From an uncultured Planctomycetales bacterium (GTDB lineage: Bacteria; Omnitrophota; Gorgyraeia; Gygaellales; Profunditerraquicolaceae), in assembly GCA_964354795.1 (NCBI GenBank), contig CAYHBB010000005.1:1-61627 (forward strand): a stretch of 61,627 nucleotides of DNA. The letters are read 5' to 3'. How positions within the stretch are numbered: the first letter of the stretch is position 1; each line of letters starts with the position of its first letter. The notes below the pieces were generated by a model. That model worked only from the letters and a program-made list of their open reading frames with translations, was not told the origin of the DNA and made no database searches. This document shows, in pieces, positions 2,591 to 19,498 of the stretch. The position numbers and the translations under genes were made by a program.

Positions 2591-3616
2591 TTATCTTTTC
2601 TCATACTTAAGCCTCAGTTGCCCACACGCAGCGTCGATATCCTGGCCGCGGGACTTACGCAAAGTCACCTGGATCCCTTGCTTGATCAGGTAATCCTTGA
2701 AATACAAGACCTCCAACTTCCCCGGCGGCTGGACATTCATCTCTTTGATGGGATTAGAAGGAATAAGGTTTACCTTGGCTAAACGTAACGGCTTTAATAT
2801 TTTAGCCAAATCCTTGACACTTTGCAAATCCGAATTAAATCCTTTGATCAAAACATACTCAAAAGTGATCTGGCGGTCGGTCTTTTTGATATAATCCTGA
2901 CATGCGGCCATCAACGCTTTAAGCGGATACTTCTTGTTCACCGGCATAAACCGAGAGCGGATTAAATCACTCGCGGCATGCAAGGAAATGGATAGCTCTA
3001 TCTGCAATTTTTCCTGCGCCAGCTTTTTCATTGCGGGAATCACCCCGCATGTGGATATCGTGATCCGGCGCGCGCCTATCCCAATTCCGTCAGGAGAATT
3101 GATCACCCTGATCGCCTTCAGGACTTCATCATAATTATCCAGTGGCTCGCCTGTGCCCATAAAAACTATATGCGTAAGTTTTTTTACGAAGTTCAGAAGC
3201 AGTATCTCTTCCAGAATTTCCCCGCTGGCCAGATTACGCTTAAACCCCGATTGCCCGCTGGCGCAAAAAGTGCAAGCGTACTTACACCCCACCTGGCTGG
3301 ATATGCAACCGGTCACCCTGCCTTCAGCCGGAATAATCACTGCCTCAATTAGATTTGCATCAGGCAGCCGGATGAGGAATTTCTGAGTCCCGTCTATAGA
3401 ATCTTGCTGCTTGGCGATCTTTGACCCCAAAATAAAGAAATTATCTTCTAGGTGTTTGCGCAAGCCAACGGAAAGATCGCTCATCACAGAAAAATCCCGC
3501 GCGCCTAATTTAAAGATCCAGTTGAATATCTGCTTGGCGTTATATCCAGGCGCGCCCCAGCCCTTAAGAATGGCCTGCAATTCAATAATATTGAGATTTT
3601 TTAAGTCCTGCTGCAT
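2591..3616 (-). CDS. rlmN: 23S rRNA/tRNA adenine-C2 methyltransferase RlmN (radical SAM)
   Basis: CKYACTFCASG radical SAM motif and RlmN/Cfr-type N- and C-terminal architecture, including the conserved C-terminal Cys (DIDAACGQL). Confidence 0.85.
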   Translation of the reverse strand: MQQDLKNLNIIELQAILKGWGAPGYNAKQIFNWIFKLGARDFSVMSDLSVGLRKHLEDNFFILGSKIAKQQDSIDGTQKFLIRLPDANLIEAVIIPAEGRVTGCISSQVGCKYACTFCASGQSGFKRNLASGEILEEILLLNFVKKLTHIVFMGTGEPLDNYDEVLKAIRVINSPDGIGIGARRITISTCGVIPAMKKLAQEKLQIELSISLHAASDLIRSRFMPVNKKYPLKALMAACQDYIKKTDRQITFEYVLIKGFNSDLQSVKDLAKILKPLRLAKVNLIPSNPIKEMNVQPPGKLEVLYFKDYLIKQGIQVTLRKSRGQDIDAACGQLRLKYEKR

Positions 3617-3644: not shown

Positions 3645-5186
3645 TTAGGAAACCGCGACTTTCAGCTTCTCTTTATCGATTTTTCCGACCCGGTTCTTGG
3701 GAAGGACCTTGGTAAACTCAAAATGATGGGGTATTTTAAAATGGGCCAGGTGCTGACGCAGAAATTCACGCAGCTCCTCCTTTTCCAACACTTCTCCCTC
3801 TTTTAACACAACGAAAGCCTTAGGCACCTCACCGCGCATGGTATCCGCGATGCCGATGACCGCCACTTCGCTTATCTTAGGATGGCGGTGGATGACTTCT
3901 TCCACCTCAGAGGAAAAGACTATTTCACCGGCCACTTTGATCATGTCTTTGATCCTGCCTACGATAGAACACCGGCCGCGCGTGTCAAAACGAGCCACAT
4001 CTCCGGTCCTTAGCCATCCATCACTAGTAATAGCCTGCTTAGTGAGCTCCGGCTCCTTGTAGTATCCGACCATCACGCACTTGCCTTTGATCCACAGTTC
4101 TCCGTCTTCATCCGGACCAAGAGTGTTGCCGTTATCGCCCACGATCTTTGCCTGGCTTTGGGGAGCAAATTCTCCGGTGTGCGGGATCTCCCGGGTATTG
4201 GTGCCGGTAGCAAAAAAGGCGTTGGGTGCAGCGGTCTCAGTCATGCCCCATCCGTTTAAAAGATAGGCATTCGGGCACTGCCTGTGAAAACGCTCCAATA
4301 ACACCGGTGAAGAAGGCGCGCCGAAAACCACGGCATAGCGTAATGACAATAGATCGAACTTATCGTATTCTTTCAATGATAAAACCGCCACATACATCGA
4401 CGGGACAATGACAAAAATACTGATCTTGTGTTTCTCAATGGTCTTTAGAAACTCAAAAGGCTGGAAGCGCTCCATCAAAACCATGGTCATGCCTGAATTC
4501 AACATCAAGAGCACATGATCCAGGCCACCCAGATGAGAAAAAGGGATCGCCGCGCACAAAAGCACATCTTTGTCGCTTAAAGAAATAAAATACTCAAAAG
4601 TATCCAGCGGATTCTTAAGGTGGCCGTAATTAAGCAGTACACCCTTGGGATGGCCGGTAGAGCCGGAGGTGTAAAAAATCGAGGAGTGGTCCAGTTCACT
4701 GATGTTCTTTTCGCAAGCCCCGGGATTCGTAGCTTTAGCGCTGAATTCCTTATCCCAGAAAAGGAAATCCCGCTCATTAAGATTCTGGGCCTCCCCCACC
4801 TCGAATAAGATGACCTCTTTTAAAGATGGACATTTATTCTTTACGTTCATTAAATCAATACTCTTTTTCCCTTGGGCAATAAGGACTTTGCTTTCGCTGT
4901 GATTGATAAAATTGATCACTTCCTCCTCGGTAAGCATGAAATCCAGCGGCACCGCTATACCGCGCAAGAGAAAAATACCCAGGAAGCTGTAAATATATTC
5001 GGGAATATTGGGAAGAAAGATAGCGACTTTATCGGATCTTTTAACTCCGAGTGAAGATAGGCCGCTTGCGACAGAAAGAGCCTGTTCCTTAAGCGCCCTA
5101 AAGGTGATTGCGGAGTCGCGAAAGAGTATAGCCGGCTTATCGCAATACTTGCCAGCCTGTTTTTCTAAAAGCCCAAGGAAGTCCAT
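3645..5186 (-). CDS. AMP-dependent acyl-CoA synthetase/ligase
   Basis: YTSGSTGHPKGV AMP-binding motif, plus GWLRTGD and PKNRVGKIDK at the C-terminus. Confidence 0.85.
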   Translation of the reverse strand: MDFLGLLEKQAGKYCDKPAILFRDSAITFRALKEQALSVASGLSSLGVKRSDKVAIFLPNIPEYIYSFLGIFLLRGIAVPLDFMLTEEEVINFINHSESKVLIAQGKKSIDLMNVKNKCPSLKEVILFEVGEAQNLNERDFLFWDKEFSAKATNPGACEKNISELDHSSIFYTSGSTGHPKGVLLNYGHLKNPLDTFEYFISLSDKDVLLCAAIPFSHLGGLDHVLLMLNSGMTMVLMERFQPFEFLKTIEKHKISIFVIVPSMYVAVLSLKEYDKFDLLSLRYAVVFGAPSSPVLLERFHRQCPNAYLLNGWGMTETAAPNAFFATGTNTREIPHTGEFAPQSQAKIVGDNGNTLGPDEDGELWIKGKCVMVGYYKEPELTKQAITSDGWLRTGDVARFDTRGRCSIVGRIKDMIKVAGEIVFSSEVEEVIHRHPKISEVAVIGIADTMRGEVPKAFVVLKEGEVLEKEELREFLRQHLAHFKIPHHFEFTKVLPKNRVGKIDKEKLKVAVS

Positions 5187-5241: not shown

Positions 5242-5781
5242 TTACTGTGCTTTAACGAACCTGGTATAGCGCATGTCTTGATCCGTATAGATAATGGTTT
5301 CCAAGTCTGGGTAATACTTGAGGATAGCCTGACGGATATCGGACTCCGCAGTATGATACAATTTCTGATTGGAAATAAAGCTGATATTGCCGGCAGCATC
5401 CTTCCAGACACAAACGGCATGGGAAATGGAAATGCCTCTGAATTTTAAAATCACTACATCGCTCTTAATGCCGATCTCTTTTAATATCGCCTGAGCCAAG
5501 ACGGCAAAATCATCGCAATCTCCCTTCTTAAGCTTAATGATCTCTTCAGGCGCCTGCCAGCCGTCACCCATGGCGAACTCATAGCGAACATTGCTGCTCA
5601 ACCATCCAGCCAGCGCTTCCGGAGTCTTGACTCTCGAAGCTATGTCAACCAGCGACAGACTTTGCGCCGCCATGCTTAAACCTAAAAGCGCAAAAAATAT
5701 AACCAGGCAAATCACCGCTACCCGCACCAAATTGTTGATGAATTTTATCTTCATAAAGAAAGCGTTTTCTTTTTTTTCCAT
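5242..5781 (-). CDS. Transglutaminase-like (BTLCP/LapG-type) cysteine peptidase, secreted
   Basis: GDCDDFA Cys motif followed by SHAVCVW (His), with an N-terminal TM or signal segment. The start may be the internal ATG at 5754. Confidence 0.5.
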   Translation of the reverse strand: MEKKENAFFMKIKFINNLVRVAVICLVIFFALLGLSMAAQSLSLVDIASRVKTPEALAGWLSSNVRYEFAMGDGWQAPEEIIKLKKGDCDDFAVLAQAILKEIGIKSDVVILKFRGISISHAVCVWKDAAGNISFISNQKLYHTAESDIRQAILKYYPDLETIIYTDQDMRYTRFVKAQ

Positions 5782-5911: not shown

Positions 5912-7402
5912 TTAGAATCCGTACCAGTAATTGACCAGGGGTTTTGCGTCCTTGGTTTTATCGACGATAACATCCTTAAGGCGGGTGTATTCGAGGAAGC
6001 CTTCCTTGCCTAACTCCTTGCCAAAACCGCTCTGCTTAAAGCCGCCGTAAGGCAGCTCATTGAAAAACATCCCGTAGGTGTTGACCCAGACAGTACCGGC
6101 ATTAAGCTGCCTGGAAATTTCCGCGGCTTTTACCTCATCCTTAGTCCAGACGCAGGCAGCCAAAGCAAAATCTGTCGCGTTTGCCAGGGATATTGCCTCA
6201 TCTAGCTTTACGAACTTACTAATGCAAACCACCGGACCGAAAACCTCTTCCTTAAATATGTTGGATTGAGGATTGACCTCCGTAATCACTGTCGGCTCAA
6301 AAAAGAATCCATTCTTAAGGGGCTCTGCTACAGGGACCTTGCCTCCGCAGATTATCCTGGCGTCATCTTTCTTGGCCTGCTCCAAATACGCCATAACCCG
6401 TTTACGCTGACTATCAGAAATCAACGGCCCCATCTGGGTTTCAAAATCCCCTCCTACCCCAAGTTTTATCCTCTGGGCCTTATTGGCGAAGTCATTAACG
6501 AACTGATCATATATATCCGCTTCAACCAAAATGCGCGACATAGCTGTACACATCTGGCCCTGGTTCAGAAATATCGAACAAAGCGAGCTATTCACCGCTG
6601 CCTCAATATCCGCGTCATTACAGATGATGCTTGCTGATTTTCCTCCCAGCTCCATGATCAGCTTCTTGACGTTTTCAGAAGTGTATTCCAGTATTTTCTT
6701 ACCCACCTCATTACTTCCGGTGAATGAGATCATATCCACCCGCTTATCCGCACAAAGGGCCTTGCCGATTTTCTCACCGCTACCCACGATCACATTGACC
6801 ACGCCATTGGGAAGCCCAGCGTCTTTGATGATCTGGGCTAACTCCAAAACGCTTAAAGGTGTCAGACTCGATGGCTTAAGCACAACAGTGTTTCCGGCAG
6901 CTAAAGCTTGAGCCAGTTTCCAACAGGCGATCAACAAAGGATAGTTCCAGGGCACGATCAAGACAACTACGCCCAAAGGTTCGCGTAAAAGTTGAGCCTG
7001 AACTTGGGCGATTTGCGTCGAAACATTCTTAGTCTCTGATTTAAGAAACTTTTCTAAATTCTCGGCAAAGTAGCGGAATGTTTCCGCCGCCGAGGGAATA
7101 TCCATAAAAGTAGATTCCTTGATCGGCTTTCCGGTGTTTAAGGTCTCAAGGTTTGCCAACTCTCCTGCTTTATCCAGGATGCCCTGCGAGATCTTTAAGA
7201 GAAAATCTTTACGCTCTCCCAGGCTTAAGCCGGTCCAATCCTTATTGTCAAAGGCAATACACGCAGCGCTCACTGCAGAAAGCACATCGTACTCCGAGGC
7301 CAGAGAGACTTCGGCAATCACCTCTCCTGTCGAGGGGTTGACTACCTTCTGCAACTCTTCGCTTTCCTTAAATTCCCCGTTTATAAATAATTTTGTATTC
7401 AT
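5912..7402 (-). CDS. NAD(P)-dependent aldehyde dehydrogenase
   Basis: ELGGKS, FLNQGQMCTA (catalytic Cys) and VPWNYP motifs. Confidence 0.9.
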   Translation of the reverse strand: MNTKLFINGEFKESEELQKVVNPSTGEVIAEVSLASEYDVLSAVSAACIAFDNKDWTGLSLGERKDFLLKISQGILDKAGELANLETLNTGKPIKESTFMDIPSAAETFRYFAENLEKFLKSETKNVSTQIAQVQAQLLREPLGVVVLIVPWNYPLLIACWKLAQALAAGNTVVLKPSSLTPLSVLELAQIIKDAGLPNGVVNVIVGSGEKIGKALCADKRVDMISFTGSNEVGKKILEYTSENVKKLIMELGGKSASIICNDADIEAAVNSSLCSIFLNQGQMCTAMSRILVEADIYDQFVNDFANKAQRIKLGVGGDFETQMGPLISDSQRKRVMAYLEQAKKDDARIICGGKVPVAEPLKNGFFFEPTVITEVNPQSNIFKEEVFGPVVCISKFVKLDEAISLANATDFALAACVWTKDEVKAAEISRQLNAGTVWVNTYGMFFNELPYGGFKQSGFGKELGKEGFLEYTRLKDVIVDKTKDAKPLVNYWYGF

Positions 7403-7451
7403 TTTTAGTTCTCCTTTTCCGCCTGAGAGGCGGAATCGGCATATTTAATGA

Positions 7452-8480
7452 TCAGGATTTATGCGGCTCGACGATCACTTTGATGCATTCCCTCCCCGAA
7501 GCCATAAGCGCAAAACCAAGGCCTGCCTCTTTAAGGCTTAAACGGTGAGTGATCAGCTTATGCACAGGTATTTTTCCAGCGCCAAGCAAATCTACCGCCG
7601 CGGCTAAATCCGAGGGACTGGCTCCGTAAGAATGCATGATCCTTATGCTCTGGCGCCAGAAATCGTTTACCGGGATAGGCAGGCTTATTCCGGGGTCTGT
7701 CGGAGCAAAAAACAACAACGTGCCTGCGCGGTCAACGCATTGTAATGCCTGCTGAAAAGCCGAGAAGCTGGAAGCACAAACAATCACCAGGTCCGCAAGC
7801 CTTCCTTCGTTTGCCTCTCGCAGCCTGGCAACCAGGTCATCTTTGGCGTTGAGGGCGTCATCAGCCCCTAATTCTTTGGCCGCCTTTAGCCGGTATTCAT
7901 TTATATCCGTGATGATCACGCGCTCGACCCCTTGCGCGACCGCTGTTAAAAGATGGAGTAACCCGGAAATTCCCGCTCCCAGGATAAGCACAGTCTGACC
8001 GGGTCCAAGGCGCGCCATTTTCTGGCCGCGCAATACGCAGGCTAAAGGCTCGATAAAAGTCCCGTCTTCAAAAGATACCCCCTCCGGCAGTAAAAATACT
8101 CCGCGCTCCACATTGATCTGCGGGACACGGATATATTCCGAGAAACCTCCGGGATAATAGTTTGTGGTATGCAGTGTTTGGCAAACGGTGTGGTTGCCGC
8201 TTAAGCAATAGCGGCAACTATTGCAAGGCACATGATGCGAAACAAATACCCTGTCCCCGGCCTTATAGCCCCTGACATCCTTTCCCGCTTCCACAATCTC
8301 TCCGGTGATCTCATGTCCCAGGACAAGAGGGGCTCTTTTTACCCGATACCATTCCATACAATCGCTGCCGCAGATGCCGCTGGCTTTTACCTTGACCAGC
8401 AATTCTCCGGGACCGATCTGAGGCTTAGGGATTTCTTCTAAGCGGACATCATTATTCCTGTAATACATTGCCACATACAT
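7452..8480 (-). CDS. Zinc-dependent alcohol dehydrogenase (MDR family)
   Basis: GICGSDCMEW, GHEITGEIVEAG, a structural-zinc Cys cluster CNSCRYC, and GAGISG Rossmann motif. The start may be the ATG at 8468. Confidence 0.85.
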   Translation of the reverse strand: MYVAMYYRNNDVRLEEIPKPQIGPGELLVKVKASGICGSDCMEWYRVKRAPLVLGHEITGEIVEAGKDVRGYKAGDRVFVSHHVPCNSCRYCLSGNHTVCQTLHTTNYYPGGFSEYIRVPQINVERGVFLLPEGVSFEDGTFIEPLACVLRGQKMARLGPGQTVLILGAGISGLLHLLTAVAQGVERVIITDINEYRLKAAKELGADDALNAKDDLVARLREANEGRLADLVIVCASSFSAFQQALQCVDRAGTLLFFAPTDPGISLPIPVNDFWRQSIRIMHSYGASPSDLAAAVDLLGAGKIPVHKLITHRLSLKEAGLGFALMASGRECIKVIVEPHKS

Positions 8481-9295
8481 TATTTTTCCCCTTTACCGCT
8501 CTTGATCTTATTAAACAATTCCTGGGCAGCCTTTACCGTAGCGTTTTCGTGCACTATGGCACGCAGGGCTGCAGCCATTGCTACCGGATGGGGGCTCTGC
8601 CAGACATTCCTTCCCAAATTTATCCCGATAGCGCCTTTTTCCATACCGTCATGGACAAACTCAAACACCTCAGTCTCAGACGCGCATTTTGGGCCGCCGG
8701 CAATGACCACAGGAACCGGGCAGCCACTCACTACTTTTTCAAAACCATCCTCGCACCAGTAGGTTTTTACGATCCGAGCTCCCAACTCTGCGCAGATCCT
8801 GCAGGCAAGCCCCAGATACCGCGCGTCGCGCTTTTCTAATTCTTTTCCCACCGCTGTAACTGCCATTACAGGGATACCGTAATTTTCGCATTCGTTTACC
8901 AGCTCAGAAAGGTTCTTTAGCGTCTGATGTTCGTAATCTCTGCCCACAAAAACAGAAATGCCCACCGCGCTCGCATTCAGCCGGATGATCTCTTCTATTG
9001 AAGTGGTCAGGCACTCATTAGCCAGATCTTTACCCGCCATGCTTGTGCCGCCGGATACCCGCAGGATGATCGGCAGGCTGTTCAGTGCGTCAACCGCTGA
9101 ACGCAAAACTCCTCTGGTGACAAAAAGACCGTCGCAATATTTAAGCAGCGGCTTGATCGTCTCTCCCGGCTTTTCCAAACAACTGGTCGGGCCCTGAAAA
9201 TATCCGTGGTCGATAGGCATAAAGAAACATTTCCCGTCAGGAATCAATCTGTTCAGTCTGTTTTTCATTCCCCAGTCCATGATGACCTCCCTCAC
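8480..9295 (-). CDS. Class I aldolase of the DhnA/LsrF family
   Basis: DWGMKNRLNRL..., PIDHGYFQGP, IVKTYW (Schiff-base Lys region) and CPVPVVIAGGPK. From memory this matches E. coli LsrF along its whole length. Confidence 0.7.
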   Translation of the reverse strand: MREVIMDWGMKNRLNRLIPDGKCFFMPIDHGYFQGPTSCLEKPGETIKPLLKYCDGLFVTRGVLRSAVDALNSLPIILRVSGGTSMAGKDLANECLTTSIEEIIRLNASAVGISVFVGRDYEHQTLKNLSELVNECENYGIPVMAVTAVGKELEKRDARYLGLACRICAELGARIVKTYWCEDGFEKVVSGCPVPVVIAGGPKCASETEVFEFVHDGMEKGAIGINLGRNVWQSPHPVAMAAALRAIVHENATVKAAQELFNKIKSGKGEK

Positions 9296-10293
9296 TTGAA
9301 CTTGACCTGTTTAAATAATGCAAATAGCCGCGTAAAAGGCACATACCACTTGGAGAGCTGCGCTAATTGGCCCTCTAGCTTCATTTTGCCCTGCGTAACC
9401 GCCACAAACGAATCAAGTCTTCCCAAAAATACCTGCTCCCAGATCTCCTTTGGCGCAGAAATCACAAAAGAAGCATTAGCATCAGGGTCTAACCTAATGA
9501 TCCTTCCTTTTTCGAAATTGAATTTGAAGGCCTTATCGGTCCCGTCGAGCTTTATCGCTAATTGCACAGTCAGATCCAGCTCCTTGCCTTTCTGCGCGAT
9601 AAGTTCATCTTTATTTACGAGGTCTACGATCGCCTGGACATGTTCTCTGCTAAACATTGGGTAAGCGATTTCTTCACTGGTCAAGCCTTCTTTTAACGCT
9701 GTATCCAGATCATCGAGGATCTCTTTGTCAAAAAGCCTGGCTACAGCCGCGACCTTTACTGCCTCCTCTAACTCCTCGACTAAATATAAGGCGTCCTTAA
9801 ATTTATCCGCGATAGCGACTACGCCGTGATTCTTCAGCACAACAATATTGCTCATCCTTAAAGCCTCGATTACCGGCTCAAGCCTGGTGATGCTGGGAGT
9901 ATCCTGTCCTAAAACAGGGATATTTCCCAGGAATAGCTTTGTCTCAAAAGTCAGTGTCTTAAGAACTGAAACGGTTGCGAAATAGGCATTAGCCAAAGTG
10001 GGATGACAGTGGATGATCACGTTGTTTATAAAATTTTTGTATATTGTGCTATGCAGGGGGAATTCCGTAGTCAGGCGGCTGTTTTTTATATCCTGTTCAC
10101 TGGCTAAATCAACCTTGATGATATCATCACCGCTTAAGCTTCCGAGGCTTGCGCCGGTAGCGGTAATAAGAATCGTATTTTTATCGACTCGGGCGCTTAA
10201 ATTTCCTGACCGCGCCACAACCAGCCGCAGGCCATATAATTTCTTACCGATATTAATGATCTCATCCTTCAATAAATTTTCATGATCGGACAT
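9292..10293 (-). CDS. Class II aldolase/adducin-domain protein (MtnB/Ald2/FucA-like) fused to a C-terminal SCP2 domain
   Basis: IIHCHPT and LKNHGVV metal-ligand motifs in the N-terminal domain. The C-terminal ~100 aa resemble SCP2 (VTQGKMKLEGQLAQLSKW). Confidence 0.7.
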   Translation of the reverse strand: MSDHENLLKDEIINIGKKLYGLRLVVARSGNLSARVDKNTILITATGASLGSLSGDDIIKVDLASEQDIKNSRLTTEFPLHSTIYKNFINNVIIHCHPTLANAYFATVSVLKTLTFETKLFLGNIPVLGQDTPSITRLEPVIEALRMSNIVVLKNHGVVAIADKFKDALYLVEELEEAVKVAAVARLFDKEILDDLDTALKEGLTSEEIAYPMFSREHVQAIVDLVNKDELIAQKGKELDLTVQLAIKLDGTDKAFKFNFEKGRIIRLDPDANASFVISAPKEIWEQVFLGRLDSFVAVTQGKMKLEGQLAQLSKWYVPFTRLFALFKQVKFK

Positions 10294-11229
10294 TTAAACC
10301 CTCAGATAAATGAGTTTGGTGATCAAATGGCTGGGAGTGACATCAAATGCCGGGTAATATGCCTTTGCCCCTTTGGGTGCCAGGCTTATGCCCTGATACT
10401 CCAGCAATTCATGGTCAGGGCGGATTTCGATCAAGATGTCTTTGCCGCTTCTGGCTTCAGATGCCGGTGGGCAAAGCACATAAAAAGGAATGTTGAAGTG
10501 TTTAGCCAGGATCGCGATCTGATAGGTGCCGACTTTATTAGCGATATCCCCGTTTTGCGCTAAGTTATCCGCTCCGACGATGACTTTATTGATCCTGCCT
10601 TCGAACATCACTTGGGCCACCATGTTATCGCAGATGATAGTCACATCAAACCCCTCGCGCTTTAATTCCCAGGCAGTCAGGCGCGACCCTTGCAGATACG
10701 GCCTGGTCTCGGTAGCGTAGAAACGCACGCGCTTATTTTCTTTTTTAGCAAACTGCGCGATCAAAGGCATCTGCCCTGAGATATTACAGTGGGTAAGCAC
10801 AGCGTCGCCGTCATTTAAAAATTTGCTCATCTCCTCCGCCTGCTGGATGCGCTTATGTCTTAAGTTCTCCAGGAAACCTTTGATGCAACGCTCAAGGTCA
10901 ATATTAGACTTGGCCCAGTTCAAGACCATAGTGGTAAGGAACTTAAAAGACAGGGTTGGCCGGGTAGCATTGATAGCTTTAGCCACTTTCTCAAGCACTA
11001 CCAATAGCTTCTTTTTGTCTTTGGTCTGCTGGATGACTTGCAGGAAGATGCAGAAAACCAGGATCACCTGTCCCACTGCCCGGGTCTTCATCTCTTTTAT
11101 CGCTAGGCACGCCTGCTTATAATTTCTTACTTTTACATAAACAAGCTTATGCGGCAACTTGGTCTCATCAAGGATGTAGATTGTGCTGCCCTTTAATTGA
11201 ATCGGCCAAAATAACGGCGAAAACTTCAT
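10294..11229 (-). CDS. mtnA: S-methyl-5-thioribose-1-phosphate isomerase (eIF-2B alpha/beta/delta family)
   Basis: ATETRPYLQGSRLTAWEL, VIVGADNLAQNGDIANKVGTY and PFYVLCP. Confidence 0.8.
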   Translation of the reverse strand: MKFSPLFWPIQLKGSTIYILDETKLPHKLVYVKVRNYKQACLAIKEMKTRAVGQVILVFCIFLQVIQQTKDKKKLLVVLEKVAKAINATRPTLSFKFLTTMVLNWAKSNIDLERCIKGFLENLRHKRIQQAEEMSKFLNDGDAVLTHCNISGQMPLIAQFAKKENKRVRFYATETRPYLQGSRLTAWELKREGFDVTIICDNMVAQVMFEGRINKVIVGADNLAQNGDIANKVGTYQIAILAKHFNIPFYVLCPPASEARSGKDILIEIRPDHELLEYQGISLAPKGAKAYYPAFDVTPSHLITKLIYLRV

Positions 11230-11328
11230 CTTTCTCCTTATTCAGGGACGGTTCTCAAACCGAAGCAAAACTGTCCCTCTTTAAGGGACAGTTTAAGATT
11301 AAGTTGAGAACCGTCCCTGATTTATTAA

Positions 11329-12078
11329 TTATTTTCCTTCCAGCTTTTTCACTGCCTCTAACGCAATCGTAATCAGATTTGACTCCGCCATGTAATATAG
11401 GGGATTCATAAATCCCATCTCTCCAGTGATGACATTGTCGCTGATTGCCAGGATCGAGCCTGCCTTTATTTTGTAAGTCTGGGCGATAGTAAGCAGGGTC
11501 GAAGAGACCATGTCCACTACTTTTGCGCCTTCTTTGCGCTTGACTTCCACTATTTCGCGTGTCTCACGAAGAAGCGCGTCAGTGGTCCAAGCCACGCCGC
11601 GGTGCACATTCAGGCCCATGCTTTTTGCGATATCATACATGGTGTCGGAGATCTTTTTATCGGCAACTGTCTTGAAATCTTTATCCACGTAATACGGGGT
11701 GACCCCGTCGCCGCGGATTACTTCATCTACAATAAATAAATCTCCGACTTTAATAAACTCATCCAAAGAGCCCGCGGTGCCGATACGAATAATATTCTGG
11801 ATCTCGGCATTGCACATCACTTCCGCGGTGATGGCGGTGTCAGTAGAGAACCTTCCGCCGTTCATGGCCGTGATCTTGATGCCGTTGAACATGCCGGTGT
11901 ACATATTATACTCCATGAAAGAGAAGTTCTTCACGGGATTTTCTATTTTTTTCAAAAGCACATCCAGCCTGTCTTTTGGCCCTGGGACAATGGCGTATTT
12001 ACCCACATCCTGCGGCCTGAGCTGCACCATCTGCGTCAGGTCCTTACCCGTCATATGCACATCTTTTTGCATCTGCAT
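11329..12078 (-). CDS. PNP/UDP-family nucleoside phosphorylase (candidate MTA/5'-dA phosphorylase)
   Basis: RIGTAGSL motif and VDMVSST. The ATG at 12078 was chosen because AGGAGAG lies 6 nt upstream. The longer tracked ORF only translates the family B leader. Confidence 0.65.
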   Translation of the reverse strand: MQMQKDVHMTGKDLTQMVQLRPQDVGKYAIVPGPKDRLDVLLKKIENPVKNFSFMEYNMYTGMFNGIKITAMNGGRFSTDTAITAEVMCNAEIQNIIRIGTAGSLDEFIKVGDLFIVDEVIRGDGVTPYYVDKDFKTVADKKISDTMYDIAKSMGLNVHRGVAWTTDALLRETREIVEVKRKEGAKVVDMVSSTLLTIAQTYKIKAGSILAISDNVITGEMGFMNPLYYMAESNLITIALEAVKKLEGK

Positions 12079-12090
12079 GTTTACTCTCCT

Positions 12091-12133
12091 TTCACAGTAA
12101 GTGAAACACTGGCCTATCCTATAAGGCCAGGTG
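12091..12133 (-). promoter_or_regulatory. Family B leader element (hairpin 1 plus hairpin 2, abutting the SD)
   Basis: Minus-strand RNA: CACCTGGCCT-TATAGGAT-AGGCCAGTG, then TTTCAC-TTACT-GTGAAA, then GGAGAG. Confidence 0.7.
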
Positions 12134-12162
12134 TTAAAAATTCCTGTTTCTCGCGGGCTATA

Positions 12163-12253
12163 GTTAGCGGGCACCTGCCGAAGACAGGGTGGCTTGGCTT
12201 GTCCTGCGCGCGGCTTATGGCCGTGCTCGGATCAAGCCAAGCCACCCGCTAAC
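12163..12253. repeat. Family C inverted-repeat element, copy 1
   Basis: GTTAGCGGG...GGTGGCTTGGCTTG pairs with CAAGCCAAGCCACCCGCTAAC. A 60-nt core is identical to 59433-59492. Confidence 0.85.
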
Positions 12254-12262
12254 ATGCATTCC

Positions 12263-13174
12263 TCACGAAGTAAATATTCTATCTAAATTCCCGCCTAAAA
12301 TACTTTCTTTATCTTCTTCCGACACCTCTAAACTCCGCACCGCGTTAATCGAGCTAAGGATGTCCTTCTTTGCCGGCCAGTCGCTGCCCCACAATAAATG
12401 CTTTGGACCTAAGAGTTCCAGCGCGGCAAGAAAATTAGCCTTGCGGATATCTCCGCTGGTATCCACATATATATTCTTCAGGAAATCCGTCGGATTGCCT
12501 TTTAAATCTTTGACAAAATCGACCCCGCGAAGCATTTGATATGTCGCATCAAATCGATGAGACAGATTTGGGATGACTCCGCCAAAATACCCAAAGATAA
12601 ATTTCACGCTATAATCACGCAGGATATCCGACATCAGGAGTTTACCAATACAAATCGTGGTGTCGAAAACATACTCGATCACCGGGGTCAGAAGTGGATC
12701 CTGCACCCGCTCAAAACCTATAGGATTGACTATCTGCGAATGCACGAAAATAGGGATAGCCTTCTCCTGCGCCAGCTTATACAAGATAAGGAATCTTGAA
12801 TCTTCAAGATATATCCCGTTATAGCTTGTGGCCAGCGAAATCGCCCTGAATCCAAGCTCTTCGGTAGCGCGCTTAAACTCCCACAACATCTCTTCCTCGT
12901 TATCAATAGGTAAAACAGCTGCCCCGATAAAACGCGAAGGATGATCTTTCAATATTCTGGCGACGTTATTATTAAAGGCCTTTGCTACCGCGCCGTGGCC
13001 ACCAAGCTTTACAAAAGCGTCAGAAGTTGGATACGAAAGTACCGCCTGATCGATTCCGGCCTCATCCATTGCCTTAAGCTGTGCCTCGATCATGCCCCAA
13101 CCCTTATGGTAAAAATGGGCGTTGAGAATCACCTCTTCCGGCAGCCAGTGGCTGTGCGCGTCGATTATCTTCAT
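12263..13174 (-). CDS. Amidohydrolase-2 (ACMSD/decarboxylase-type TIM-barrel metal hydrolase)
   Basis: IIDAHSHW N-terminal His-x-His, GSDWP near the C-terminus. Confidence 0.7.
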   Translation of the reverse strand: MKIIDAHSHWLPEEVILNAHFYHKGWGMIEAQLKAMDEAGIDQAVLSYPTSDAFVKLGGHGAVAKAFNNNVARILKDHPSRFIGAAVLPIDNEEEMLWEFKRATEELGFRAISLATSYNGIYLEDSRFLILYKLAQEKAIPIFVHSQIVNPIGFERVQDPLLTPVIEYVFDTTICIGKLLMSDILRDYSVKFIFGYFGGVIPNLSHRFDATYQMLRGVDFVKDLKGNPTDFLKNIYVDTSGDIRKANFLAALELLGPKHLLWGSDWPAKKDILSSINAVRSLEVSEEDKESILGGNLDRIFTS

Positions 13175-13639: not shown

Positions 13640-14248
13640 TTATTTCTTCACCAATTCCACTGTGTCAAAGTAAAGCGTACCCTTGGATTCAGGTAAAGGC
13701 TCAAACTGGAACACTTTGATGGGGTAATCAATGTTACCGTTATTGTCGGAGTTCTGAGGCTGCCAGTCGGTACGCAGGACAAATTTATCAAAGCTGCAGA
13801 CGATCTGTTTCCATCCAGTGAAGTCGTCTACAACGATGAAGCGCCACAGCTCATTACCGTTATCCTTGATATCAAAAGCCACCTGTGCCTTAGAGTCAGT
13901 GCCATACATAAAAAAGGAGATTGCGCTATACTCTTCCCATTTGATATCCTCGGGGCTTATCTGCCAGCTGGCATTCTTAGCGTCAAGGGCAGAACCCTTA
14001 GCAATATACATATACCCACCCTTAACCGCATCATATACTACTTTGATCGACTGATTTCCGCTATTCTTCGTATTTTTATCTGCGGTAACTACCACTGATG
14101 AGCCGTTACCAGAGCCAAAATCAAAAGTACCCGCAGGGCCTCCGGAAACATCCACCTCAAAATCATCTACCAACAAATTGTCCGCGGCAAAACAGACTAA
14201 AAATGTTACAAGGACAAAACTTAGAACTAAAAATAACGGCTTTCTCAT
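13640..14248 (-). CDS. Secreted beta-rich protein (CBM/CIA30-like fold suspected)
   Basis: Signal peptide MRKPLFLVLSFVLVTFLVCFA. The family guess is weak. Confidence 0.4.
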   Translation of the reverse strand: MRKPLFLVLSFVLVTFLVCFAADNLLVDDFEVDVSGGPAGTFDFGSGNGSSVVVTADKNTKNSGNQSIKVVYDAVKGGYMYIAKGSALDAKNASWQISPEDIKWEEYSAISFFMYGTDSKAQVAFDIKDNGNELWRFIVVDDFTGWKQIVCSFDKFVLRTDWQPQNSDNNGNIDYPIKVFQFEPLPESKGTLYFDTVELVKK

Positions 14249-14267
14249 TCTTCCTCCTTAGTTGTTA

Positions 14268-14378
14268 GGTTATCAGTATATCGGAATATCAGTTGGCGGA
14301 ATATCAGGATAGCAGGTTTAGTTTTCTCTGATTCCCTGATATTCTGAACGCTGATTCTCTAATTCCCTGATAATCTGG
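14268..14378. repeat. Family D inverted-repeat element (TATCAG/CTGATA arms), copy 1
   Basis: The left arm carries repeated (A/T)ATCAG and the right arm repeated CTGAT(A/T). It is collinear with 39824-39928 (GGTTATCA..ATATCGG..ATATCAG....CTGATATTC...CTGATAATCTG). Confidence 0.8.
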
Positions 14379-14393
14379 CTTACATATTCTAAG

Positions 14394-15167
14394 CTACTTA
14401 TCCGGATGCTGTTGTTTAAAGGGAATCACCGGAGCCGTCCACGGCGTCTGCTGATTGATCACCGAGATCTCCAAAGGACAGACATTCTGCGGAACCGTAA
14501 GCGCGAATTTTACCGCATTTTCAATTGCCTCAGTAGTCATCAGACGCGATGTGTTAGAGGTAATCTCGCTTAGCTTCCCGGTTAAATCGGTATCCGTAAC
14601 TCCTGGCAAGATGGAAGTCACCTTTATTCCATGGTCGCGCAACTCCCAAAATAACCCCTTAGAAAAAGCGCGTAACCCCACCTTTAAAGAGCTATAAACA
14701 ATAAAATTCCTCGGAAGCGGATCGCACAAGGTCGAACCGGAAACCATGTTGATGATCGCTCCGGATTTGTTTTTGATCATATCGTTGATCACCAGCCGTA
14801 TCAAGCGCACATACCCCAGATAATTGGTATGCGCCAGCCTCTCAAAATCCTCAATGGGCTGCTCCTGAAACGGATATTGGGAAGATACCCCCGCATTATT
14901 GATCAGGATGTCTATCCTGCCGTATTTCTCCTTGGTTTTGTTGACCAAGTTCTCCAAATCCTCTAATTTTGTGACATCACAGACAACCGGCAAGACTTCG
15001 ACCTTATACTTTTTAGCGATCTCTTCCGCCGTTTCTTTAAGCGGACCTTCCTGGCGCGCAGCAATCACCAAATTTATCCCGAGGCCCGCAGCTGTGCATG
15101 CCAGAGCCTTACCGATCCCGCGGCTGGCACCGGTTATAATCGCTGTCTTTCCTTTTAAGTTTTCCAT
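14394..15167 (-). CDS. Short-chain dehydrogenase/reductase (candidate ketoreductase)
   Basis: TGASRGIG, NNAG, and the YSSLK catalytic Tyr-x3-Lys. Confidence 0.85.
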   Translation of the reverse strand: MENLKGKTAIITGASRGIGKALACTAAGLGINLVIAARQEGPLKETAEEIAKKYKVEVLPVVCDVTKLEDLENLVNKTKEKYGRIDILINNAGVSSQYPFQEQPIEDFERLAHTNYLGYVRLIRLVINDMIKNKSGAIINMVSGSTLCDPLPRNFIVYSSLKVGLRAFSKGLFWELRDHGIKVTSILPGVTDTDLTGKLSEITSNTSRLMTTEAIENAVKFALTVPQNVCPLEISVINQQTPWTAPVIPFKQQHPDK

Positions 15168-15197
15168 CTTTACCCCCTTAATTTGCCATTATTTTTC

Positions 15198-15264
15198 AGC
15201 TCTGCAAATACCCCGAAGCCTACGCATGAAATTCTTGAGGCAACCCACAAGAATTTCAAAGTGA
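15198..15264. repeat. Family E intercistronic element, copy 1 (hairpin B module)
   Basis: CCCCGAAGCCTACGCATGAAATTCTTG...CAAGAATTTCAAAGTGATTAGGCAAGGGGCAA. It shares TTAGGCAAGGGGCAA with 23707-23722. Confidence 0.7.
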
Positions 15265-16383
15265 TTAGGCAAGGGGCAACCTTTTACTTAAGAATAATAA
15301 CCCGATAAGACAAAATCCAAAAACCGTAAAGCCCAAAGCAAAACTTTGTTGCATAACTAATCCACCCAAAGCTACACCTAAGCCCCCGGAAATAAAACGC
15401 ACGCTGCTGTTAAGGCTAGCTGCCTCATTCAAATATTCCTTAGGCAAATCAGTCAATAACGTAGAGAGCCCGGCATGATTAAAGGTCCAACCCACCCCCC
15501 AGACAATCATTAATAACGCCAACACCAGAAATGGCGATTGCAACATCAATAAAGACACGCTGATTACCATCAAGACTATTCCGATATTAAGAGTTCTAAC
15601 CCTGCCCAGAGAATCGGAAAACTTTCCCCCGATTACCTCACCAAATACTCCACTTAAGCTAGTCAGCGTTATCAGCATGCTGATATAAAATTGCGAAAGA
15701 ACGAAACTTTTTGAAAAATACACTGCCAGCCACTGCTGCACCCCGTGATAAAACAGGCTGACCATAAATATATAGGTAAATACTATTAAGACGTTTTTGT
15801 TCTTAAGCGCCCGACCGTAATTTACCCTGAATCCGGTGGCATCTTGCTTAAAGCTGGGTAGGAATAAATACATCGCCAGCATCAAAATGAATCCGGCTAT
15901 TCCAGGGAGCAGGAAAATGAGGCGCCAATGGATGAAGCTGCTTAGCAGGAGCCCAAGTAAGGACGCTACAAATGTAGCGCCGAAAAAAAATCCTACATAC
16001 TCACCGCGTTTCTTAGGCTCAATATGCTCGCCGATCAAGATCAAGCCAAGAGGTATAACTGATGCGCCGAACACCCCCATCAGCACCCGCGCGGTAAAGA
16101 GCGCGCCGATATTCTGCGCTAGAGCCGCCAGAATATTCGCGCAGGAGAAAAAAAACAAACAAGCCAGCTCTACTTTCTTGGCATCATATGCCCGCACCAG
16201 TGGGCCGTAGAAAAGCGCGGATACTCCGTATGGCAGCATATAAAACCATACGATTTTACCTACTAAAAACTGAGAAAGAGCAAATTCTTTTGCAACCGAG
16301 GGAACCAAAGCCGCGGCTGCCGCTACGTTGAATGATAATACCGCGCTTTCAAGGCAAAGAATTATAAAAGTTAAATTGCTCAA
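15265..16383 (-). CDS. MFS transporter
   Basis: About 12 predicted TM segments. An MFS motif-A-type loop lies at GPLVRAYDAKKV. Confidence 0.75.
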   Translation of the reverse strand: MSNLTFIILCLESAVLSFNVAAAAALVPSVAKEFALSQFLVGKIVWFYMLPYGVSALFYGPLVRAYDAKKVELACLFFFSCANILAALAQNIGALFTARVLMGVFGASVIPLGLILIGEHIEPKKRGEYVGFFFGATFVASLLGLLLSSFIHWRLIFLLPGIAGFILMLAMYLFLPSFKQDATGFRVNYGRALKNKNVLIVFTYIFMVSLFYHGVQQWLAVYFSKSFVLSQFYISMLITLTSLSGVFGEVIGGKFSDSLGRVRTLNIGIVLMVISVSLLMLQSPFLVLALLMIVWGVGWTFNHAGLSTLLTDLPKEYLNEAASLNSSVRFISGGLGVALGGLVMQQSFALGFTVFGFCLIGLLFLSKRLPLA

Positions 16384-16384
16384 C

Positions 16385-16867
16385 TTATTTCTTTGCTTCC
16401 CGCTCTATGATCTCTTTAAATATCTTCAAATTATGCTGCGAGCCTTCGTTAATGAACCCTTCGATCTGGGTATCATTAAATTTAAAAGTTTTTTCCATTT
16501 CAAAATCTTGAATCCAAGTCAGCTTAACAGGACAGAAGTCCGTAGTTTGGCCTCCATTAGCCAAAGCCATACCTTCCTGGACAAGCGTATAAAGCCAGAT
16601 AATTTTCATGTACTTAAAAGGAAATACTGGCTCATGACGCTGAGCATAGGTAAAATATTTATCCTTGAATAGCAACCTCCAGGAAACCCAGGACTTATCG
16701 TCTTCGTCAGTCAGGCGGAAAGTGATCTTATTATCTTTCTTTTCTAAAACCTCTGCCTTCTTATATTCAGTGCCGAATAATTCTGTCCAGCGAGTAATGT
16801 CGTTAGAAATATCGAAAACTAGATCATAAGGCGCGTTAATGATTATAGAATTACATGTATGGCCCAT
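16385..16867 (-). CDS. SRPBCC-superfamily protein (polyketide aromatase/cyclase-like)
   Basis: N-terminal IIINAPYDLVFDISNDITRWTELF is typical of Polyketide_cyc2/TcmN-like proteins, and the size (160 aa) fits. Confidence 0.6.
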   Translation of the reverse strand: MGHTCNSIIINAPYDLVFDISNDITRWTELFGTEYKKAEVLEKKDNKITFRLTDEDDKSWVSWRLLFKDKYFTYAQRHEPVFPFKYMKIIWLYTLVQEGMALANGGQTTDFCPVKLTWIQDFEMEKTFKFNDTQIEGFINEGSQHNLKIFKEIIEREAKK

Positions 16868-16877
16868 ATTTTCTCCT

Positions 16878-17675: not shown

Positions 17676-17905
17676 TATTTTACCAGTTTTGACTGAATAA
17701 CTGCATCTATCTCATTGATGGTCGAGAACTTAGTGATCTCTTTAGGGCTAAACTTAGTGCCAAAAGCCTTTTCCAAAGCAATCACGGACTCAACCATCTC
17801 GGTTGAGTCAACGCCAATACTATCTTGCAGGCTGACATCGTCTTTTAATTCTTCAACCTTAACTTTCAGAAGATTACTCAACACTCCTTTGATCTTTTCT
17901 TTCAT
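17675..17905 (-). CDS. Acyl carrier protein
   Basis: 76 aa, acidic, with a GVDSTEM phosphopantetheine-attachment Ser motif. It shares one base with the start of the downstream cyclase gene. Confidence 0.8.
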   Translation of the reverse strand: MKEKIKGVLSNLLKVKVEELKDDVSLQDSIGVDSTEMVESVIALEKAFGTKFSPKEITKFSTINEIDAVIQSKLVK

Positions 17906-19434: not shown

Positions 19435-19445
19435 ATCCTACCTCC

Positions 19446-19489: not shown

Positions 19490-19498
19490 CATTCATTA

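Follow-up and report, generated by a model that had tools for sequence, protein, structure and literature searches.

Anaerobes that are rich in radical S-adenosylmethionine (radical-SAM) enzymes must all dispose of 5'-deoxyadenosine (5'-dA). The question raised by the locus described here is whether it encodes such a disposal route, and by which reactions. The locus is found in a stretch of 61,627 nt (the window, contig CAYHBB010000005.1) from an uncultured bacterium placed in the Omnitrophota, where genes encoding a nucleoside phosphorylase, an MtnA-type isomerase and an aldolase of class II share the minus strand with a gene of the LsrF family. A phosphorylase or kinase, an MtnA-like isomerase and an aldolase of class II have been established experimentally as a route from 5'-dA or 5'-methylthioadenosine (MTA) to dihydroxyacetone phosphate (DHAP) and an aldehyde, and the phosphorylase-initiated variant of this 5-deoxyribose or DHAP shunt has already been described (PMC6079011). 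By no means all organisms have this aldolase route, and those who described it concluded that there must be further ways to dispose of 5'-dA (PMC6079011).

The operon looks like a variant of this known pathway, with an extension by which the aldehyde would be converted to an acyl-CoA. Embedded in it are two adjoining genes encoding the LsrF-like protein and a Zn-dependent alcohol dehydrogenase (Zn-ADH). This LsrF-ZnADH cassette is a highly conserved module found across phyla, now annotated as 'autoinducer-2 aldolase/thiolase'. We tentatively read the cluster as two units that would act on the same kind of intermediate, and give this model as a whole a probability of roughly 0.4; the substrates, the direction of the dehydrogenase, the thiolase activity and the link between the two units are all deduced from sequence. 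A thiolytic LsrF branch of the salvage of SAM by-products, not described previously and suggested by a first-pass annotation of the window, survives in altered form as the leading hypothesis.

The Operon and Its Limits

Protein families were assigned from Pfam and from scores against NCBIfam and other curated hidden Markov models. The first gene in the direction of transcription encodes a nucleoside phosphorylase of the PNP/UDP family, probably of the purine type and with a divergent ribose pocket (11329..12078, minus strand, as are all genes of the set; PNP_UDP_1). It is followed by an MtnA-type isomerase, predicted to convert an aldose-1-phosphate to the ketose-1-phosphate and resembling 5-(methylthio)ribose- or 5-deoxyribose-1-phosphate isomerases (10294..11229; IF-2B), and by a class II (metal) aldolase with a C-terminal SCP2 domain (9292..10293; Aldolase_II and SCP2). 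Then come a class I (Schiff-base) enzyme of the LsrF family, a putative CoA-dependent thiolase of the 'NL/KTYW' lineage (8480..9280; DeoC/LsrF, NF006081), its partner, an NAD+-type Zn-ADH of the polyol/threonine dehydrogenase subfamily (7452..8480; ADH_N and ADH_zinc_N), and a non-acylating NAD(P)+ aldehyde dehydrogenase (ALDH, 5912..7402; Aldedh). All six open reading frames (ORFs) are present at these coordinates and each carries its domain, according to the ORF list and Pfam, which bears out the six close minus-strand genes, with their families and spacing, reported in the first-pass annotation.

The conserved unit exceeds six genes. In most related genomes a gene encoding an AMP-forming acyl-CoA ligase follows the ALDH gene, and a gene of the Amidohydro_2 family precedes the phosphorylase. 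Both are present on the same strand of the window, the ligase, probably the last step of the aldolase branch, at 3645..5186 (AMP-binding and AMP-binding_C) and the Amidohydro_2 gene, whose membership of the operon is uncertain, at 12263..13174 (PF04909; ACMSD/LigW-type decarboxylase-like). Neither the place of the ligase in the conserved set nor the SCP2 domain of the aldolase was recorded in the first-pass annotation. Between the ALDH and the ligase the window has a transglutaminase-like/DUF553 gene, whose product has a hydrophobic segment at its N-terminus (5242-5781), which was found by tblastn in one of 166 related loci (L089, 56% identity; loci are numbered with an L).

The gene junctions are of the operon type. 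The phosphorylase gene starts at the ATG at 12078, preceded by AAGGAGAG, and is separated by 99 nt from the isomerase gene, which adjoins the aldolase gene with a gap of 0 nt. After the aldolase stop codon TGA come GGGAGG, five further bases and the ATG at 9280. This ATG is most likely the true start of the LsrF gene, since the GGGAGG Shine-Dalgarno sequence lies 5 nt upstream and the orthologues in the databases have 266 amino acids; it gives a gap of 11 nt to the aldolase gene, while the GTG start (ORF 8480-9295) would give a 4-nt overlap. The stop of the LsrF gene and the start of the Zn-ADH gene share one nucleotide (TAATG), and 49 nt separate the Zn-ADH from the ALDH. Scans for promoter and terminator consensus sequences gave matches at background level only. 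The named close homologues of the proteins in the window are all from metagenome-assembled genomes (MAGs) of Candidatus Omnitrophota/Omnitrophica. The arrangement is not due to chance, as dozens of contigs, from metagenomes and MAGs and independent of one another, have the same gene set.

The Phosphorylase, the Isomerase and the Aldolase

The phosphorylase matches PNP_UDP_1 (1.5e-32) and reaches no NCBIfam cutoff, the top model being that of uridine phosphorylase (TIGR01718; 111.8 bits, cutoff 280.3). When the protein is aligned with E. coli Udp, DeoD and MTAN, the uracil-binding GQER insertion is seen to be deleted, and the position of Udp Arg223 holds a Ser-Asp motif. This motif aligns with Asp204 of DeoD and Asp197 of MTAN, the residue that protonates N7 of the purine. 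The equivalents of Arg24 and Arg87, two of the three phosphate-binding arginines in DeoD, are kept; they are absent from the hydrolase MTAN. The universal E-M-E ribose motif is replaced by D-M-V in the window protein and in ten aligned orthologues (ORF cluster 9). A histidine near the N-terminus, in a KDVH sequence, aligns with the SDVFH motif of E. coli uridine phosphorylase, whose histidine contacts the 5'-OH. The protein is not of the MtnP type (20 bits against the MTAP model TIGR01694, cutoff 275), and it weakly matches the hopanoid phosphorylase HpnG (48.9 bits). By these alignments it is best described as a putative purine-type nucleoside phosphorylase with an unusual sugar pocket. A uridine phosphorylase was ruled out by the score, the missing GQER and the purine-type Ser-Asp motif. 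Nor are the neighbours unrelated, as MtnA adjoins the phosphorylase in 29 of 34 loci.

The isomerase is of the MtnA type. It matches IF-2B (7.8e-58) and passes the cutoff of TIGR00524 (213.6 bits, cutoff 185.9), and is below those of PRK05720 (255.9, cutoff 271) and the mtnA equivalog (237.9, cutoff 279); the ribose-1,5-bisphosphate isomerase model gives 116 bits only. The closest solved structure is MtnA from T. maritima (1t9k), and the catalytic Cys of the THCN motif and the Asp of the GAD(N) motif both align.

The class II aldolase matches Aldolase_II at 7.8e-33 and SCP2 at 5.2e-5 (23.9 bits, cutoff 21.3). The fusion of these domains is conserved in 1315 homologues, and all the named ones belong to the Omnitrophota. 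In 22 aligned sequences G30, N31, S33, E77, H95, H97 and H156 are invariant, and these residues correspond to the phosphate, Glu and His3 sites of FucA-type enzymes. The aldolase domain scores 114 bits on aldolase models, 91 on OtnC and 89 on FucA without reaching a cutoff, and its scores on aldolase-type models are also above those on AraD models. The MtnB models give 55.9 bits (TIGR03328, cutoff 137) and 57.0 bits (PRK09220, cutoff 226), so that the protein does not fall with MtnB. The ribulose-1-phosphate aldolase model NF053831 gives 54 bits. Its structural neighbours include YgbL/OtnC, FucA and DrdA, and Foldseek, whose matches were all generic proteins of the class II aldolase fold, did not separate aldolase, decarboxylase and epimerase; the match to the structure of DrdA (6btd) is a distant one of 31 bits. 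The AlphaFold2 model has a mean predicted local distance difference test score of 67.6, with the SCP2 half below 50-60. Phosphorylase, isomerase and class II aldolase together have the composition of the DHAP shunt as noted by the first-pass annotation (Beaudoin 2018, PMC6079011).

The ALDH matches Aldedh at 4.3e-168, with the catalytic motifs ELGGKS and GQMCTA visible in the translation. No NCBIfam equivalog cutoff is reached, and the top models are BADH and aminobutyraldehyde dehydrogenase. For the ligase the top models are long- and medium-chain fatty-acid-CoA ligases (418 bits, cutoff 476), and acetyl-CoA synthetase gives 233 bits. The order ALDH-ligase-RlmN is kept in at least 13 blocks. 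The ligase is also found after ADH-LsrF where the phosphorylase module is absent.

The LsrF-Like Protein and Its Dehydrogenase Partner

The sequence identifies the LsrF-like protein as a member of the LsrF family and not an FBP aldolase. It passes the cutoff of the model for 3-hydroxy-5-phosphonooxypentane-2,4-dione thiolase (NF006081; 357.8 bits, cutoff 297) and stays below those of ADH synthase (200 bits, cutoff 299), archaeal FBP aldolase (130, cutoff 430) and FbaB (61, cutoff 277). The top PDB matches are structures of E. coli LsrF (3gkf, 3glc and 4p2v; 264 bits), with MJ0400 as second best (149 bits), and the window protein is 48% identical to E. coli LsrF. The LsrF-type identity given by the first-pass annotation thus holds, and a placement among FBP aldolases without synteny to mtnA was not found, as the pair occurs with mtnA in 25 of 42 informative Omnitrophota blocks.

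Diaz et al. listed Asp57 (general base) and Lys203 (Schiff base) of LsrF as catalytic residues and His58, Gly226, Gly227, Gly253 and Arg254 as its phosphate site, and proposed that Asp251, beside Lys203, acts as acid/base (PMC2728841). Ribulose-5-phosphate and ribose-5-phosphate were bound by the E. coli enzyme in crystals (PMC2728841). The first seven residues are invariant in 72 orthologues of the window protein. Since the phosphate site is conserved, the pair is predicted to use a sugar phosphate. Met252 of E. coli is replaced by Leu in the window lineage (71 of 72 and 120 of 120 sequences) and Tyr206 by Trp. A second LsrF lineage in the Omnitrophota, 60% identical to the window protein, keeps the E. 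coli-type Asp251-Met252 and KTYY, and is likewise paired with a Zn-ADH. ADH synthase (AroA', MJ0400) and DhnA/FbaB belong to the same DeoC/DhnA TIM-barrel family and have the Lys/Asp catalytic pair; the window has AVTAVGKE where E. coli LsrF has AVTGVGKD, a segment that appears to align with the Tyr position. The protein departs from a full LsrF member in one of the proposed catalytic residues (Asp251) and in its genomic surroundings: tblastn with E. coli K-12 queries (E <= 1e-5) detected no LsrK, LsrR, LsrB, LsrG or LuxS in the window or in 171 related loci.

Among solved structures the Zn-ADH is closest to those of sorbitol dehydrogenase, ketose reductase and L-threonine dehydrogenase. In an alignment of 63 orthologues, at least 95% keep the catalytic residues C37, H56, E57 and E144, the structural cysteines C86, C89, C92 and C100, the motif G168xG170xxG173 with the NAD+-type D192, and R46, H82, H83 and R276. 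The last four could bind an anionic substrate.

Distribution and Genomic Context of the Pair

A scan with the LsrF-like protein, using one genome per species, gave 80 loci, from roughly eight phyla, in which LsrF is 71-91% identical. Their taxa were taken from the record titles, where MAG labels are not always reliable, and comprise Omnitrophota, Syntrophales/Thermodesulfobacteriota, Nitrospirota, Brocadiales, Chloroflexota/Dehalococcoidia, Elusimicrobia, Latescibacterota, an unclassified archaeon and Hadarchaeum. Across these loci LsrF is about 75% and the Zn-ADH about 60% identical. As judged by tblastn and ORF clustering the Zn-ADH is present in 71 of the 80 loci and adjoins LsrF in 70; several of the nine loci without it are contig ends. 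The constant partner of LsrF is thus the Zn-ADH and not the aldolase. The suggestion that both dehydrogenases process the aldehyde from the shunt therefore stands in part. The ALDH could take it, while the Zn-ADH is a near-obligate, coupled partner of LsrF rather than an accessory reductase.

Genes for phosphorylase, isomerase, aldolase and ALDH lie beside the pair in 16 of the 80 loci, all of the Omnitrophota type. In other phyla the two genes mostly form an operon by themselves. De novo clustering and a census of Pfam domains in 70 ORFs linked to such operons showed a class II aldolase as the only partner that recurs across phyla outside the Omnitrophota, in 7 of 64 loci. These are short aldolases without SCP2, located in the operon of the pair in L022, L034 and L047 and a few kb away in L029, L033, L046 and L078, and the short aldolases beside the pair give 63-119 bits on NF053831. 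In two loci from Nitrospirota the gene after the pair encodes a PfkB-type sugar kinase. Eight anammox-type loci (L054, L065, L068, L074, L076, L080, L081 and L084) have the pair directly downstream of cysK and cysE, which is probably a lineage-specific synteny of the Brocadiales.

A reverse scan of metagenomes was made with the aldolase-SCP2 fusion. All 34 loci with room for it encode MtnA upstream of the fusion, and 29 of these 34 have the phosphorylase there as well. Among 42 informative blocks the LsrF-ADH pair is present in 25; the other 17 are closed and lack it, with the order aldolase-ALDH-ligase-RlmN or a shortened version of this. The pair lies between aldolase and ALDH, as in the window, in 14 blocks and between ALDH and ligase or RlmN in seven; in three a reversed ADH-LsrF pair is found between ALDH and ligase, and in one the pair comes after the ligase. 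It is always co-directional with the block, with spacers that are often short or overlapping. The six-gene arrangement described initially is thus one of several orders, and in most phyla the pair stands alone.

The reversed pairs carry the second LsrF lineage, which is abundant in the Omnitrophota in the order ADH-LsrF-ligase-MMPL-DUF1329-DUF1302-(RlmN) without the phosphorylase module. In L001-L003, L010-L011 and L171-L173 ADH-LsrF is followed by an acyl-CoA ligase, an MMPL transporter, DUF1329 and DUF1302, and is preceded by a MarR/RND efflux set and a CBM_11 protein. The MMPL/DUF1329/DUF1302 set of the relatives is a conserved, putative lipid-export neighbourhood that is absent from the window. 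In L020 and L035 the pair stands beside a strongly diverged block, in which MtnA, aldolase-SCP2 and ALDH are 35-39% identical. The phosphorylase is absent from L020, L021, L035 and L036, where a class-IV (IlvE/PabC-like) aminotransferase-like gene lies between Amidohydro_2 and MtnA, and in L020 and L035 MtnA is followed by a 160-amino-acid ORF of no recognised family.

A Proposed Two-Unit Pathway

Unit A would consist of the phosphorylase, the MtnA-type isomerase, the class II aldolase-SCP2, the ALDH and the ligase, and would be an Omnitrophota version of the 5-deoxyribose/DHAP shunt. A 5'-deoxy purine nucleoside, either 5'-dA from radical-SAM enzymes or MTA or both, would be phosphorolysed, and the product isomerised to 5-deoxyribulose-1-phosphate or 5-methylthioribulose-1-phosphate (MTRu-1-P). 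The aldolase would split this ketose into DHAP and an aldehyde, which is proposed to be oxidised to the acid and then activated to the acyl-CoA.

Unit B would be the translationally coupled LsrF-Zn-ADH pair, an independent and widespread cassette. The known substrate of LsrF is a phosphorylated 3-hydroxy-2,4-dione, of which the beta-(2,4)-diketone is cleaved. In the proposed scheme the NAD+-dependent Zn-ADH would oxidise the C4-OH of the same ketose-1-phosphate, turning 5-deoxyribulose-1-phosphate (CH2OP-CO-CHOH-CHOH-CH3) into CH2OP-CO-CHOH-CO-CH3. This is 3-hydroxy-2,4-pentanedione-5-phosphate (P-HPD), the known LsrF substrate. The lysine of LsrF would then form a Schiff base and the acyl group be transferred to CoA, giving DHAP and acetyl-CoA (or R-CH2-CO-CoA), or in sum DHAP, acetyl-CoA and NADH from 5-deoxyribulose-1-phosphate. 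MTRu-1-P would yield methylthioacetyl-CoA and ribulose-1-phosphate glycolyl-CoA. Unit B might thus reach the end products of unit A with no free aldehyde and at no cost of ATP. The chemistry of the C4 oxidation is our own reasoning from the published LsrF reaction and the family assignments. An oxidation of a 1-phospho-2-keto-3,4-diol followed by a retro-Claisen cleavage is suggested because the LsrF substrate is a dione, no pathway for autoinducer-2 (AI-2) is present, and the partner is a secondary-alcohol dehydrogenase. As LsrK, LsrG, LsrR, LsrB and LuxS are missing from the loci, P-HPD would not be derived from AI-2 there, and an oxidative origin fits the dehydrogenase.

The model would explain the coupling of LsrF to the Zn-ADH, the presence of the pair inside an MtnA operon, and the class II aldolase neighbour, as an alternative enzyme for the same substrate. 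The retention of the pair beside the diverged block in L020 and L035 is cited in its support, as is the fact that this ADH subfamily oxidises CH3-CHOH- and polyol secondary alcohols. The patchy occurrence, with 25 blocks having the pair and 17 lacking it, is in keeping with a branch whose task aldolase, ALDH and ligase could also perform. The more specific proposal, that the pair is the anaerobic fate of the MtnP/MtnA products and takes 5-deoxyribulose-1-phosphate by way of P-HPD to DHAP, acetyl-CoA and NADH, is more doubtful than the two-unit model and should be taken as a speculative lead.

Several systems share parts of this logic. DrdK/DrdI/DrdA and the DHAP shunt (MtnP or MtnK, MtnA and Ald2) have the same three-step logic and families, with DHAP and an aldehyde as products. 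The operon in the window differs by having a phosphorylase of the DeoD/UP-like hexameric family with an altered ribose pocket instead of MtnP, an aldolase that is distant from DrdA and carries SCP2, a built-in ALDH and ligase, and the embedded LsrF-ADH cassette. The Lsr system for AI-2 processing in E. coli and Salmonella (LsrK, LsrG and LsrF) shares the LsrF equivalog with Lys203, Asp57 and the phosphate site, and the proposed intermediate, P-HPD, and products, DHAP and acetyl-CoA, would be the same. Here, however, the partner is a Zn dehydrogenase and not the isomerase LsrG, Asp251, Met252 and Tyr206 are replaced by Asn, Leu and Trp, and LsrK, LsrG, LsrR, LsrACDB and LuxS are not found nearby. 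A role in quorum sensing is unlikely, since the hosts belong to strictly anaerobic lineages. With L-threonine 3-dehydrogenase and 2-amino-3-ketobutyrate CoA ligase (Tdh/Kbl), a beta-dicarbonyl compound arises when the CH3-CHOH group is oxidised by an NAD+-dependent Zn-ADH, also of this subfamily, and CoA-dependent cleavage then gives acetyl-CoA; the proposed unit B would work similarly except that the Schiff-base TIM-barrel enzyme LsrF, instead of the pyridoxal phosphate enzyme Kbl, would perform the cleavage. The ribulose-1-phosphate aldolase route of halophilic archaea (the non-carboxylating pentose bisphosphate pathway) needs a kinase and a phosphatase acting by way of ribose-1,5-bisphosphate. 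These are absent here, where the isomerase is of the MtnA type. Among the papers in the library searched, none links LsrF with 5-deoxyribose, methylthioribulose, 5'-deoxyadenosine, Omnitrophota, anammox or Syntrophus.

Alternative Explanations

Several observations weigh against the two-unit model. The phosphorylase lacks the universal ribose-binding Glu and the third phosphate Arg, the aldolase carries a domain of a lipid or acyl-CoA type, and the ligase resembles long- and medium-chain enzymes. The ligase type and the SCP2 domain hint at a 5'-substituent bulkier than H or SCH3, possibly a lipidic one, and neither the sugar pocket, the SCP2 fusion nor the long-chain-type ligase is explained by 5'-dA or MTA. 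Lipid-type genes are common nearby, namely two ketosynthases (KS-KS), a B12-binding radical-SAM gene of the BchE/HpnJ type and SRPBCC in the window, and MMPL, DUF1302 and DUF1329 in relatives. In the LsrF lineage of the window the proposed acid/base Asp251 is Asn (71 of 72 and 120 of 120 sequences). Outside the Omnitrophota no mtnA or phosphorylase gene is found within 10 kb of the pair, and within the phylum, genomes that lack unit A have the pair at the identical chromosomal location (CBM11 ... ligase-MMPL-DUF1329-DUF1302-RlmN). The co-localisation in the Omnitrophota may accordingly reflect inherited synteny rather than selection, and independent recruitment as a proof of functional linkage is weakened by the occurrence of the pair at this position without the phosphorylase module. 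In L087 genes of a mobile type separate the units: a Schlafen/AlbA_2-HATPase gene and a MazE-PIN toxin-antitoxin pair (L087/L088, 11026-12699 and 15096-15735) split aldolase, ALDH and LsrF in a block that is syntenic in other respects. The two branches, leading to the same products, also look redundant. No RNA runs containing the window sequence were found, the matching runs being DNA runs from sediment metagenomes only.

LsrF-ADH may also be functionally unrelated to unit A. Anaerobes would then use it as an independent housekeeping module for a different phosphorylated 1-deoxy- or deoxy-ketose, and its place in a conserved syntenic block of the Omnitrophota would be a coincidence. Candidates would be 1-deoxyxylulose-5-phosphate (DXP), fuculose- or rhamnulose-1-phosphate (giving lactoyl-CoA), or a damaged-metabolite adduct of DHAP. 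Most of the 64 loci without unit A have the pair as a stand-alone two-gene operon, the same locus may hold the pair without unit A, 17 of the 42 blocks have unit A without the pair, and the insertions in L087 and the PfkB-type kinases in Nitrospirota point the same way. Such independence would, however, leave unexplained that the pair takes four positions in the block and is always co-directional, that in the window it is packed between aldolase and ALDH, that it is kept beside the deeply diverged block of L020 and L035, and that class II aldolases recur beside it in other phyla; we consider it unlikely, while giving it more weight than any other alternative. Ordinary catabolism of nucleoside ribose, not salvage of SAM by-products, is a less probable reading. 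Ribose-1-phosphate from the phosphorylase would be converted by the isomerase to ribulose-1-phosphate and further by the aldolase to DHAP and glycolaldehyde, from which the ALDH would form glycolate, on the model of the ribulose-1-phosphate aldolase route of halophilic archaea, with ADH and LsrF producing DHAP and glycolyl-CoA. The alignment of the KDVH histidine with SDVFH of uridine phosphorylase and the scores on NF053831 (54 bits for the aldolase domain and 63-119 for the short aldolases) are in line with this, as are the pentose phosphates in the E. coli LsrF crystals (PMC2728841). It is opposed by the isomerase, which scores far higher as MtnA (256 bits) than as ribose-1,5-bisphosphate isomerase (116), by the gene content of the window, where neither the kinase nor the phosphatase of the pentose-bisphosphate route is present, by the loss of the ribose-binding Glu, and by glycolyl-CoA being an unusual product.

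That the enzymes handle a lipid would account for the SCP2 fusion, the long-chain-type ligase and the HpnG match of 48.9 bits, and for the conserved order ADH-LsrF-ligase-MMPL-DUF1329-DUF1302 together with the KS-KS pair, the HpnJ/BchE-like B12 radical-SAM gene and the SRPBCC/cyclase genes upstream. In one version an adenosylated lipid, following an HpnH/HpnG-like logic, would lose its adenine, be isomerised and be cleaved to a C2-extended fatty aldehyde, which becomes the acid and then the acyl-CoA. In another, ligase, LsrF and ADH would be biosynthetic, with a Claisen condensation of acyl-CoA with DHAP and a ketoreduction, as in early sphingoid-base synthesis, giving a C-C-linked phospho-polyol lipid exported by the neighbouring MMPL/DUF1329/DUF1302. 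Yet the pair lacks ligase or transporter neighbours in other phyla, no adenosylating radical-SAM enzyme of the HpnH/MqnE type was identified, the SCP2 match is weak and its structural model of low confidence, and the thiolase equilibrium is expected to lie toward cleavage. We consider this reading very unlikely. Least probable of all, and hardly tenable, is the scheme of the first-pass annotation, in which the class II enzyme is an MtnB-type dehydratase that forms a 2,3-diketo-1-phosphate for thiolysis by LsrF, with ADH and ALDH only processing aldehydes. The aldolase and LsrF genes do adjoin, with an 11-nt spacer, and MtnB is of the same superfamily, but MtnB models give 56-57 bits (cutoffs 137 and 226), below the aldolase, FucA and OtnC models (114, 89 and 91), and no variation is seen at the FucA-type Glu77 or at the residues that bind phosphate and the His ligands. 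The product of MtnB is an alpha-(2,3)-diketone, while a retro-Claisen cleavage needs a beta-diketone. The universal LsrF-ADH coupling would also be left unexplained, and the ALDH directly follows the aldolase in at least 17 blocks without LsrF.

The Leader and the Upstream Neighbourhood

A structured 5' spacer of 184 nt (12079..12262, minus strand) with repeated hairpins and then a Shine-Dalgarno sequence separates the phosphorylase gene from the Amidohydro_2 gene. It folds with a minimum free energy of -81.9 kcal/mol (z = -5.9). Rfam gave no match in the operon at the gathering threshold, and the leader had only a chance-level miRNA match at a permissive E-value. As the hairpins recur elsewhere in the window, also upstream of unrelated genes, control by a dedicated riboswitch or leader was rejected and the spacer is seen as a REP-like or shared leader element; the hairpins give no clue on SAM or MTA. 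One intergenic hairpin, CACC-N6-TANAGGA-N7-GTGTT, is found in six copies in the window, with none expected by chance (minus strand; 12105-12133, 19461-19489, 24037-24065, 42638-42666, 42713-42741 and 42843-42871). The stems covary (CTGGCC/GGCCAG, CTGGCT/AGCCAG and CCAACC/GGTTGG) around a conserved loop. After four of the copies comes another small hairpin, which also covaries, and then the Shine-Dalgarno sequence of the downstream gene; the genes that follow are the phosphorylase operon, the B12 radical-SAM gene, a small DUF2621-like ORF and an EF-G paralogue. This hairpin has no match in Rfam and could represent either a shared leader or an element of the REP-like kind. The spacer also contains a long, near-perfect hairpin (12190-12252) with 15-bp arms, GGGTGGCTTGGCTTG and CAAGCCAAGCCACCC, of which a 98% identical copy is located at 59430-59492, near the other end of the window.

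The closest structures to the Amidohydro_2 protein are 5-carboxyvanillate, ACMS and gamma-resorcylate decarboxylases (about 66 bits), and a nucleoside deaminase was rejected on account of this resemblance to ACMSD/LigW-type decarboxylases. In most relatives the gene lies upstream of the phosphorylase gene; in the window the structured spacer is found between them. The gene may instead be part of the KS-KS/B12 radical-SAM/cyclase cluster upstream. This cluster (13640-23595) is lipid/polyketide-like and syntenic across the Omnitrophota. It encodes a secreted CBM_11-like protein, an SDR, an MFS transporter, an SRPBCC/polyketide-cyclase-like protein, a 'putative cyclase', a B12-binding radical-SAM protein with BchE/HpnJ as top models, below cutoff, two tandem ketosynthases and a PanE-like reductase, and relatives add an acyl carrier protein and a cupin. 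The three radical-SAM genes noticed initially in the window are real, and encode RlmN (2591-3616), the B12-binding protein (17974-19434) and a KamA-like protein (43087-44286).

Possible Biological Meaning of the LsrF-Dehydrogenase Cassette

Matches to lsrF in MAGs are commonly taken as a sign of AI-2 quorum sensing, and at the loci described here no other Lsr or LuxS component is found. Should the link to 5'-dA prove wrong, the LsrF-ZnADH cassette would still be a clearly delimited target that lends itself to simple assays. If the model is right, the route by dehydrogenase and LsrF would keep the two carbons in a thioester, from which ATP can be gained, and would produce no toxic aldehyde. It would also assign a biochemical function to two proteins whose conservation is about 75% between the Omnitrophota and groups such as anammox bacteria, Syntrophales, Nitrospirota, Chloroflexota and archaea. 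On the more specific reading, by which the pair turns 5-deoxyribulose-1-phosphate into DHAP and acetyl-CoA, the label 'autoinducer-2 aldolase/thiolase', attached to thousands of proteins of anaerobes, would denote the salvage of SAM by-products and not quorum sensing, and the degradation of AI-2 in enteric bacteria would be a later co-option of the LsrF/dehydrogenase chemistry.

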